From the IMG/VR virus record IMGVR_UViG_3300033121_001702: a stretch of 21,507 nucleotides of DNA, one strand, 5' to 3'. Under the pieces are notes generated by a model, which saw only the letters and a program-made list of their open reading frames with translations, was not told the origin of the DNA and ran no database searches. The position numbers and the translations under genes are program-made. This stretch comes from a virus. This document shows, one piece after another, positions 10,732 to 12,158 of the stretch (its first letter is position 1; every line of letters starts with the position of its first letter).

Positions 10732-11385
10732 TTAATCGGTAACGGCCGCAACCAGAATCTCTTCAGGAGTCATGTTGCCGATATCGCTGGCATTCTTGGT
10801 GTCCACGATATCGAACTTCGCGCCCTGCGCAACCAATTCATCGTCGAGCTCTTTGAGGAACTTCGTCGCACCGGGATCGTCGCCGAACTGAAGGAACGAA
10901 ATTGCGAGCTGCTCATCGCTGTCCATTTCCTTCGTGACATCAATGATCATCTTCTTCGCGGCGGAGCCATCGTTGGGCAGACCGTCGGTGACGACGAGAA
11001 TCGTAGTGCCGTTCTTCAAATTGCCGTTGCGCTTACGTTCGCGCCAACCATCGAAAGCGATCTTCAAAGCCGGGGCGAGGTCTGTGCCGCCAGAAGGCTG
11101 ATTTTCCGTGAAAATCTGCTTCAGCGCACTCATGTCGACGCCGTTGTAGGCCTTGGGATTGTTGTTGAAGACGACAACATCGATCCCATCAGGATCGTGT
11201 TTCGCAGCTTCGCGAACAACTGCCGTTGCGAATTCTTCGGCATACTTGAACCGAGGCGTGTTGATTGAGGCGCTCTGCGGATCGCCCATCGAGCCGCTCT
11301 TGTCGATAATCACAACACAGTCGCGATTCTTCAACGCAGCTTCAACCGCAGCCAAGTTTTTTTCTTGAACTTCGTTGTTGGACAT
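10732..11385 (-). CDS. von Willebrand factor A domain protein, TerY-like
   Basis: MIDAS motif VVIIDKSGSMGD with downstream T and D residues, about 217 aa as in TerY; start taken at ATG 11385 with SD AAAGGA (the ORF-track start at 11430 is TTG). Local GC about 52% vs about 33% background. Confidence 0.8.
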   Translation of the reverse strand: MSNNEVQEKNLAAVEAALKNRDCVVIIDKSGSMGDPQSASINTPRFKYAEEFATAVVREAAKHDPDGIDVVVFNNNPKAYNGVDMSALKQIFTENQPSGGTDLAPALKIAFDGWRERKRNGNLKNGTTILVVTDGLPNDGSAAKKMIIDVTKEMDSDEQLAISFLQFGDDPGATKFLKELDDELVAQGAKFDIVDTKNASDIGNMTPEEILVAAVTD

Positions 11386-11450
11386 GTTTGTTCCTTTTGA
11401 ATTAAGGGATTCAGAAACTTTCAGAAGCAATTACTTCTGTTCATGTATTC

Positions 11451-12158
11451 TTATGCCAGCTTTTTAAAATTCTTGGGTTTCCACCAAACAGCATAAAGTA
11501 TACCGTATGTGGTGATAACAGCCATACCAACCCAAAATATAATCTTAACAGCCGGATCATCAGGCGGGGGTACGTGTTCAGGATAAATCATTTCGTAAGT
11601 CTTATACGAAAGTTTTAAACCCAACCACGCTACCAATGCGTATGCCATGTGTTCAAGTTCTGGCCATTTATCAAGTACGGTCAAGAATCCGTTAGCTACG
11701 AATCTCATCATGACAACACCTAATAACACGCCGACATATGTTAACCACAATTCTTCGGTCAGCGCAACTGCTGCCATTAAACTGTCGATACTAAACGCTA
11801 TGTCTGTGAGTTCGACCCACACAGTTGTCATCCAAAATCCAGATTTCATATTTTTTTCTTCTGAATCTGAATGTGTACCTGCAAACCAAAAATGTTTGGT
11901 TGCTAAGAAGAGTAGGTATCCCGCACCTAACGCGCTTAATTGCCAAACTGTCATCACCCATTTACCAATTAGCAACATCAGAAAACGAAATACGACTGCA
12001 CCAACAAGGCCGTATAATAGCGCTTTCTTTTGTTGTTTGTGTGGTAGATGTTTAACCATTGCTGCTAATACCAGAGCATTGTCTGCTGATAGTAATCCTT
12101 CTAGCACTATTAATGTGCCAATTACCACCAATACATGAACGATAAAGGCGTGGTCCAC
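11451..12158 (-). CDS. TerC-family integral membrane protein
   Basis: Multiple TM helices and the paired TerC signature motifs LSADNALVLAAMV and SIDSLMAAVAL; GTG start at 12158 with SD AAGGAG 8 nt upstream. Confidence 0.8.
   Translation of the reverse strand: MDHAFIVHVLVVIGTLIVLEGLLSADNALVLAAMVKHLPHKQQKKALLYGLVGAVVFRFLMLLIGKWVMTVWQLSALGAGYLLFLATKHFWFAGTHSDSEEKNMKSGFWMTTVWVELTDIAFSIDSLMAAVALTEELWLTYVGVLLGVVMMRFVANGFLTVLDKWPELEHMAYALVAWLGLKLSYKTYEMIYPEHVPPPDDPAVKIIFWVGMAVITTYGILYAVWWKPKNFKKLA

Follow-up and report, generated by a model that had tools for sequence, protein, structure and literature searches.

A TerC and vWA gene pair in a phage genome fragment: a candidate minimal Ter-type membrane module whose GC-rich vWA gene was apparently acquired laterally

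A stretch of 21,507 nucleotides from the IMG/VR virus record IMGVR_UViG_3300033121_001702 (the window, by which we mean its whole length) carries on its minus strand a gene for a TerC-family membrane protein, followed by a gene for a small protein with a von Willebrand factor A (vWA) domain. This raises the question of whether the two are partners or chance neighbours, and of how a vWA gene much richer in GC than the rest of the window came to lie there. We put at about even the chance that the pair is a self-standing phage cassette amounting to a minimal Ter-type membrane module, in which a vWA protein of lateral origin docks on TerC, or on machinery associated with it, and senses or gates its cation handling. 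The pair is best read as a known kind of system, TerC combined with a TerF-type vWA protein, in a minimal two-gene form that lacks TerD.

An earlier note on this DNA, made without database searches, had described the two genes as adjacent, on the same strand and directly after the terminator of a gene resembling the major vault protein (MVP), and this arrangement proved correct. The TerC gene comes first (11451..12158, minus strand, 235 aa), with a GTG start and an AAGGAG ribosome-binding site at 12167-12172. The vWA gene (10732..11385, minus strand) encodes 217 aa from a likely ATG start at 11385. The mechanical open reading frame (ORF) reaches further, to a TTG (10732..11430); the ATG has an AAGGA ribosome-binding site in front of it (11392-11396), and the genes called in close relatives likewise encode 217 aa. 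The spacer between the two genes (11386..11450, minus strand) is 65 nt long, contains the ribosome-binding site of the vWA gene and has no T-run terminator. It folds slightly more stably than shuffled sequences (z = -2.7), no terminator-like site was found in it, and the two genes are probably co-transcribed. The upstream edge is the intrinsic terminator of the MVP-like gene (12232..12263, minus strand), a 13-bp stem and T8 lying directly 3′ of the MVP stop, with a folding energy of -16.5 kcal/mol (z = -4.75 against shuffled controls). At the downstream edge, a 14-bp hairpin 3′ of the vWA stop is followed by a U-rich tract (10675..10708, minus strand) and is a probable terminator; the 81 nt around it (10655-10735) fold at -25 kcal/mol (z = -4.6 against shuffles). 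Enclosed by stable hairpins on both sides, the pair has the appearance of a self-contained cassette.

Three metagenomic contigs from three different Logan runs (L003, L004 and L050) are 89-93% identical to this stretch and have the same gene order. L050 reaches the end of MVP, and the order MVP-TerC-vWA is kept in it. It carries two substitutions in the MVP terminator, both of which preserve pairing (A-U to G-U and U-G to U-A), and the hairpin after vWA is kept in L003 and L004, where it appears as a palindromic BLAST match. The 73-nt TerC leader (12159..12231, minus strand), which includes the ribosome-binding site of TerC, is 95% identical in L050. It also holds a single copy of the octamer TATAAATA, which had been likened to a T4 late promoter and placed at 12223-12234. 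Its actual position is 12217-12224 on the minus strand, and it occurs once in the window against 2.7 copies expected by chance. The octamer is thus no evidence for T4-type late promoters, and this candidate was rejected.

A scan of IMG/VR that started from an alignment of the vWA family returned 78 viral loci, in which a TerC gene was counted if it lay on the same strand and at most 1.5 kb downstream. TerC follows vWA in this way in 10 of them. The same is true of four phage-like contigs that rank among the closest homologues (L005, L006, L025 and L026). No TerC was found beside members of the family at cellular loci (0/80, almost all from filamentous cyanobacteria), nor in control phage MVP loci (0/24), and the linkage of vWA and TerC relative to the cellular and control loci has a Fisher p of 1.5e-4. 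The reciprocal scan, started from TerC, gave 30 phage TerC loci. Eight of these have a strong PF10138 vWA gene beside TerC (177-237 bits, MIDAS, that is the metal-ion-dependent adhesion site, conserved), and both gene orders are seen; in L226-L228 and L240 TerC precedes vWA, as it does in the window. Judged from these comparisons, the pairing is recurrent and phage-specific and has apparently been assembled more than once.

Simple co-inheritance does not account for the linkage. Pairwise identities of the vWA proteins and of their TerC partners are weakly correlated (rho = 0.25), and L053 and L006 have vWA proteins that are 58% identical but TerC proteins that are only 26% identical. Moreover, the order in the window, TerC and then vWA, is opposite to that in the loci where TerC follows vWA, and the window TerC has other affinities, being nearer to bacterial YkoY than to the vWA-linked phage TerC proteins. 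In the four phage-like contigs, gene calling gave a small gene of 54-66 aa (L005:9601-9765, L006:7878-8045, L025:7521-7715 and L026:7604-7801) that adjoins or overlaps TerC at its 3′ end and could be a conserved third component. Phage contigs that have no TerC beside vWA show another arrangement, with vWA tail-to-tail with an endolysin gene of the GH19 or glucosaminidase type (L023:1413-3031 and L210:5001-6178).

The cellular counterpart is a family of 201-aa vWA proteins in Nostoc, Dolichospermum, Aphanizomenon and other cyanobacteria. These are 46-51% identical to the window protein over residues 18-217 and share its MIDAS and the C-terminal GAKFDIVDTK. However, they differ in context and composition, being encoded as a tandem pair beside an Slr1339-family gene, without a TerC neighbour and with 18-49% GC at third codon positions (GC3). 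In Aphanizomenon (L007-L009, 7360-9134), for instance, the 201-aa gene stands as a tandem duplicate and is then followed by the Slr1339-family gene.

The Pfam matches of the vWA protein are above cutoff (VWA_2, 3.4e-11; VWA, 6.1e-6), and the intact MIDAS read earlier as DKSGSMGD was confirmed, at residues 28-35. In alignments of 20 and of 44 homologues the MIDAS residues D28, S30, S32, T101 and D134 do not vary. On the DNA, the DxSxS part (DKSGS, codons 28-32) occupies 11290..11304 on the minus strand, with T101 at 11083-11085 and D134 at 10984-10986. The site is also conserved in the distant TerF-like vWA proteins that adjoin phage TerC genes. Against the relatives of about 90% identity, dN/dS is 0.13-0.19 at a dS of 0.29-0.34, which indicates purifying selection and hence a functional gene. 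The protein consists of a single vWA domain; it has no hydrophobic segment and is thus soluble.

A confident AlphaFold2 model (predicted local distance difference test 88.7) has alternating strands and helices in the Rossmann-like alpha/beta vWA fold. Foldseek returned 117 PDB matches at E <= 1e-3, and the matches listed are vWA or vWA-like domains. The best solved structure is the copine BON1 (PDB 6kxk, E = 4e-9), with matches at 17-19% identity, and the best viral structural matches are vWA proteins of giant viruses. Lower matches include a Klosneuvirus copine and a vWA protein of Acinetobacter phage ME3, a phage reported to have a relatively complete Ter system (PMC7824862). Among family members about 50% identical to the window protein, PF10138 (vWA-TerF-like) is matched at E <= 1e-3 in 42/44 and Copine (PF07002) in 15/44. 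By these profile and structure matches, the protein clearly appears, at the level of the family, to belong to a clade with the copines and the C-terminal vWA domain of TerF, with which it also shares a complete MIDAS. It differs from both in standing alone, without the C2 domains of copines and without the TerD domain of TerF.

This placement departs from the TerY label that the vWA gene had first been given. Like TerY of the terXYW or TerY-P triad, which is Ter-associated in the literature (PMC11090510), the window protein is small, stands alone as a vWA domain and has a MIDAS. Unlike TerY, it has no phosphatase or kinase partner among the window ORFs scanned and no detectable similarity to vWA proteins of plasmid ter regions. 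A tblastn search of 72,556 plasmids at E <= 1e-3 found no ter-operon vWA, its matches being three cyanobacterial plasmid genes only, though a TerY reference sequence was not directly compared. Neither a PP2C phosphatase nor a Ser/Thr kinase turned up when 25 window ORFs were scanned with Pfam, and PADLOC found no defence-system match in the window. On these three grounds a TerY identity lacks support. An exact-protein look-up of the vWA sequence returned no record.

The same evidence bears on a wider proposal in which the vWA protein, independently of TerC, serves signalling or defence in the manner of TerY or assists assembly as a MoxR-type co-chaperone. TerY-P triads and MoxR-vWA pairs are known settings of vWA proteins in defence systems and jumbo phages (PMC11090510, PMC7824862), and an intact MIDAS would suit either. 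However, the 25 ORFs also lack a MoxR-family ATPase; the one AAA ATPase of the window (1120-2043) lies 8.7 kb from vWA and gives only a generic AAA match. With the PADLOC and plasmid searches negative and the family fitting the TerF-C/copine vWA model, we regard this proposal as highly improbable.

The second protein bears out its first description as a TerC-family membrane protein. It matches Pfam TerC (PF03741) at 1.4e-48 with 165 bits against a cutoff of 27.8, and the NCBIfam YkoY subfamily (TIGR03716) with 249 bits against a cutoff of 138.5. Both acidic motif pairs are present (E20/S24/D26/N27 and E116/D119/D125); in an alignment of 20 sequences S24, D26, N27, D119 and D125 of this proposed metal site are invariant, and E20 and E116 nearly so. 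A Kyte-Doolittle scan shows several hydrophobic segments, as in a multi-pass protein, and dN/dS relative to the relatives is 0.02-0.04, indicating purifying selection. The closest TerC relatives are bacterial YkoY proteins (50-57% identity), and identity to the vWA-linked phage TerC proteins is 22-43%. IMG/VR scans found no close relatives of the window TerC or of the window MVP. From its sequence, the window TerC is of the YkoY/MeeY type.

MeeF and MeeY are described as TerC-family proteins of the LysE superfamily with seven transmembrane segments, which export Mn2+, metalate exported enzymes and associate with the Sec holotranslocon (PMC10550928). The window TerC resembles Bacillus subtilis MeeY (YkoY) and MeeF in scoring above the YkoY cutoff, in its acidic motif pairs and in its multi-pass character. 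It differs in being phage-encoded, in being paired with a vWA gene and in having no yybP-ykoY riboswitch upstream; an Rfam scan of the whole window at the gathering threshold found no riboswitch, including the yybP-ykoY Mn2+ type. Such an upstream riboswitch is typical of bacterial YkoY-type TerC but not strictly defining. A vWA partner of MeeY or MeeF is not mentioned in the part of the paper by He et al. (2023; PMC10550928) that we draw on.

Abbreviated Ter systems, consisting of TerC, TerD and a TerF-type vWA protein with or without TelA and PRTase (phosphoribosyltransferase) or HAD genes, have been described in jumbo phages (Iyer et al. 2021, PMC7824862; Klebsiella phage phiKp34, PMC8386662). 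The window shares with them a phage TerC gene and a MIDAS vWA gene of the TerF-C-terminal type on the same strand, a pairing found in both orders, and the TerC proteins of such clusters are 42-47% identical to that of the window. The window vWA protein, however, is a member of a subfamily whose proteins are shorter, at about 200 aa, and match PF10138 only weakly, and its gene is a GC-rich import. A further difference is the missing partners. Pfam scans of 25 ORFs of the 21.5-kb window found no TelA, TerB, PRTase or HAD. For TerD we built a hidden Markov model (HMM) from four phage TerD proteins and ran it on six-frame ORFs. It placed TerD next to TerC in 24/30 phage TerC loci, one of which also has PRTase and HAD genes, and detected none at 12/14 vWA-linked TerC loci. 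The earlier note's suggestion that the two genes are parts of a Ter system is thus plausible, given phage TerC loci elsewhere that have TerD and a TerF-like vWA gene, but no TerD accompanies them in the window.

Iyer et al. proposed that TerC sits at the membrane, that the TerF vWA domain forms a sub-membrane structure, and that phages may use such systems for exclusion of competitors (PMC7824862). For the window pair we can envisage a mechanism along these lines. TerC, as a multi-pass protein of the YkoY/MeeY type, would move Mn2+ across the cytoplasmic membrane and support the metalation of exported enzymes at the Sec translocon. A vWA domain with a MIDAS binds a partner by way of a shared divalent cation, to which the partner contributes an acidic side chain. 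The soluble vWA protein of the cytoplasm may accordingly dock on TerC from the cytoplasmic side, or else on a machine associated with TerC, where an acidic side chain of the partner would complete the coordination of the MIDAS-bound cation. The resulting sub-membrane complex might sense or gate the handling of divalent cations by TerC in the infected cell. The pay-off would probably be an altered metal or envelope status, which could bring stress protection or exclude competing phages, as proposed for the larger phage Ter clusters.

A stronger claim goes further: that the short vWA protein with its MIDAS serves TerC-family metal transporters as a dedicated cytoplasmic partner specific to phages, that phages have put the two-gene unit together repeatedly, using different TerC subfamilies and either gene order, and that this unit is the irreducible functional core of Ter systems. 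We offer this tentatively and think it rather less likely to be right than wrong. If the vWA protein is a partner of TerC, the pair would be a tractable system for studying Ter and TerC function, that is, metal-gated control of the membrane and Sec for host takeover or for exclusion of rival phages. The recurrence of TerC with only a small MIDAS vWA gene in phages would then point to a minimal interacting core of Ter systems.

Several observations weigh against reading the two genes as one module. No TerC lies within 4 kb of vWA in 68/78 phage loci, and none accompanies it at the cellular loci, so the vWA protein can work without TerC; conversely, 22/30 phage TerC loci have no vWA neighbour. 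The TerD HMM found no TerD among the six-frame ORFs of the window, which leaves the analogy to full Ter systems incomplete. The PF10138 score of the window vWA protein is 18.5 bits against a gathering cutoff of 29.4. The comparisons establish which genes these are, that their motifs are intact, that both are under purifying selection, where the cassette ends, that the linkage recurs specifically in phages and that the composition of vWA is anomalous; the physical interaction of the two proteins, the metal and the biological role are elements that we infer. The working of Ter systems in general is not settled: the mechanism of tellurite resistance by TerC is called elusive, with no evidence of tellurite transport by TerC (PMC10550928).

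The same counts could be explained if TerC and vWA were unrelated "morons" that are neighbours by chance, TerC acting alone as an auxiliary metal transporter and the vWA protein having a separate role. The many loci with only one of the two genes (68/78 viral and all 80 cellular loci for vWA; 22/30 for phage TerC) fit this explanation, as do the differing composition and nearest relatives of the two genes and the contigs L023 and L210, where vWA adjoins endolysin genes instead of TerC. Against this, no fewer than 14 independent phage contigs have a member of this vWA family adjacent to TerC on the same strand, and 8 more have a TerF-like vWA gene so placed. The pairing moreover spans different TerC subfamilies and both orders and never occurs in control loci, and the window pair is enclosed by two hairpins with a spacer of only 65 nt. 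We therefore consider a chance neighbourhood unlikely.

The origin of the vWA gene is a separate part of the question. The GC profile and codon-usage analysis suggested by the earlier note both single the gene out as compositionally foreign. Its GC content is 53.1% and that of the window 35.6%; the previous estimate of about 52% with GC-rich codons therefore stood, and that of 33% for the window was too low. By codon position its GC is 0.57, 0.36 and 0.66. The excess is restricted to third positions, first and second positions being the same as in other genes, and the GC3 of 0.66 compares with a mean of 0.247 (sd 0.067) in 20 other window genes (z = 6.2). Of the vWA codons, 144/217 end in G or C, against 1022/4146 in the background (Fisher p = 4e-36), with GGC used in 11/15, AAG in 14/17 and TTC in 9/9 cases.

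In 60-nt and 300-nt GC profiles this appears as an island of about 54% GC (10712..11335, minus strand) that covers the core of vWA and about 20 nt beyond its stop. On its 5′ side the island has its edge around residue 18, which is also where similarity to the 201-aa family sets in, but this edge is not sharp. The 51-nt N-terminal extension has 45% GC against 54% for the core, a difference that is not significant at that length, and an edge at residue 18 is suggestive only. The anomaly is not a property of the family. Among 76 viral family members the GC of vWA exceeds that of its flanks by +0.018 (sd 0.030, maximum +0.109), compared with +0.182 in the window (z = 5.4). The anomaly is thus real and peculiar to this lineage.

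Lateral import from a GC-richer genome is the best explanation of this compositional anomaly. The donor would have had a GC content of at least 50-55% and was probably another phage. A search of 5.8 billion proteins for the donor lineage, as the earlier note had advised, found no GC-rich donor: there were no vWA homologues between 92% and 53% identity, and the nearest relatives beyond L003, L004 and L050, all at most 53% identical, are phage genes of ordinary GC (GC3 25-45%). In neighbour-joining trees the sister group of the window vWA was purely viral in 94/100 bootstraps, although the exact sister was unstable and the sample consisted mostly of viral sequences.

The claim that the acquisition was recent holds only in a relative sense. 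The vWA genes of L003, L004 and L050 are equally GC-rich (GC3 0.67-0.68). The island is thus shared by these three relatives, which are about 90% identical to the window (dS about 0.3), and was acquired before they diverged. Over 3.6 colinear kb (10565-14226 compared with L050) dS is 0.17 for MVP, 0.34 for vWA and 0.78 for TerC, which suggests mosaic recombination or very different constraints. Because dS is so uneven across this colinear region, dating the acquisition by synonymous divergence is uninformative.

Selection rather than transfer could in principle have kept the GC-rich codons, through expression level or timing, RNA structure, or the antisense ORF at 10711-11268. In keeping with this, the island is equally GC-rich in the three relatives although dS is about 0.3, the substitutions that separate the window from L003 leave GC balanced (34 against 34), and in the 193-kb viral contig IMGVR_UViG_3300047388_000185 (L112/L021) a second TerC-linked vWA gene (L021:5887-6597) is likewise far richer in GC than its flanks, with a GC3 of 85-94% in a locus of about 50-52% GC. 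Against it, only the third codon positions of the window gene are shifted, vWA is not systematically GC-rich across the 76 viral family members (mean difference +0.018), antisense "shadow" ORFs occur in 69 family loci, as expected from the codon pattern, and the island runs about 20 nt past the vWA stop codon. We therefore consider selection a very unlikely cause and retain lateral import. If so, the GC-rich vWA would be a clean example of gene replacement between hosts of differing GC, in a conserved functional slot of a huge phage.

The MVP-like gene that precedes the pair (12271-14832, minus strand, ATG at 14832) matches Pfam MVP_shoulder at 2.8e-19 and Vault_3 at 1.6e-7. Its product is 40-42% identical to ORFs of LR756500, LR756501 and LR756503, metagenomic phages of 462-735 kb. 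A megablast search of the window found no close DNA relatives among cultured or deposited phages. It had been suggested that the vWA domain links the cassette to vaults, much as vPARP is joined to eukaryotic vaults. In such a case the vWA protein would be an accessory of the MVP-like protein, the phage counterpart of a vault-associated vWA, and TerC a bystander. The MVP-like gene does lie immediately upstream, and the order MVP-TerC-vWA is conserved in L050. However, a search for co-occurrence of the three genes found it in that relative and in none of 24 other phage MVP loci, which had no TerC within 8 kb and no adjacent vWA. MVP was not found at any vWA-family locus, a strong terminator separates MVP from the cassette, and vPARP is reported to bind MVP through its INT domain and not through vWA (PMC5665922). 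We rejected the vault link on these grounds; the missing co-occurrence largely refutes it, and we give it almost no credence. The neighbouring vault-like gene is thus a separate matter, and a tempting but unsupported link is removed.

One MVP locus, L029, has a generic vWA gene (PF00092, 30.6 bits) 4.4 kb upstream of MVP, across genes on the opposite strand. It is preceded by a gene for a 309-aa protein that ends in a zinc ribbon, the two lying at L029:1977-3519. The zinc ribbon was all that was detected in the 309-aa protein, with no kinase domain, and no phosphatase gene was identified there; a likeness to TerY-P is unconfirmed, and there is no link to MVP.

The rest of the window has the character of a huge phage, with five tRNAs, ThyX, a pyrimidine-dimer glycosylase, endonuclease VII and a group I intron. 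Further huge-phage-type genes are those for a class II aminoacyl-tRNA synthetase (19954-21168, minus strand), the peptidyl-tRNA hydrolase PTH2 (19577-19957, minus strand) and an S-adenosylmethionine decarboxylase (17217-17615, minus strand), the last with a mildly raised GC3 of 0.38, like TerC. The group I intron (16373-16638, minus strand; Rfam RF00028, 51.1 bits against a gathering threshold of 50) overlaps the 3′ end of an HNH ORF (16378-17100, minus strand), whose product is probably an intron-borne homing endonuclease. Between 9000 and 10560 the minus strand is poor in ORFs, has 40-46% GC and encodes tRNA-Glu and tRNA-Met. This region may hold unrecognised RNA genes: it contains a sub-threshold tRNA-like match (10349-10412) and, near 10180, another motif resembling a T-arm, it has a sigma-70-type promoter close to consensus (10558-10530), and 9954-10559 is 95% identical to L003 against 88-90% in the flanking coding DNA. 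Lastly, a tRNA-Phe gene (14866-14941, minus strand) lies immediately upstream of the MVP-like ATG and is overlapped by the mechanical ORF, which starts from a TTG at 14910.

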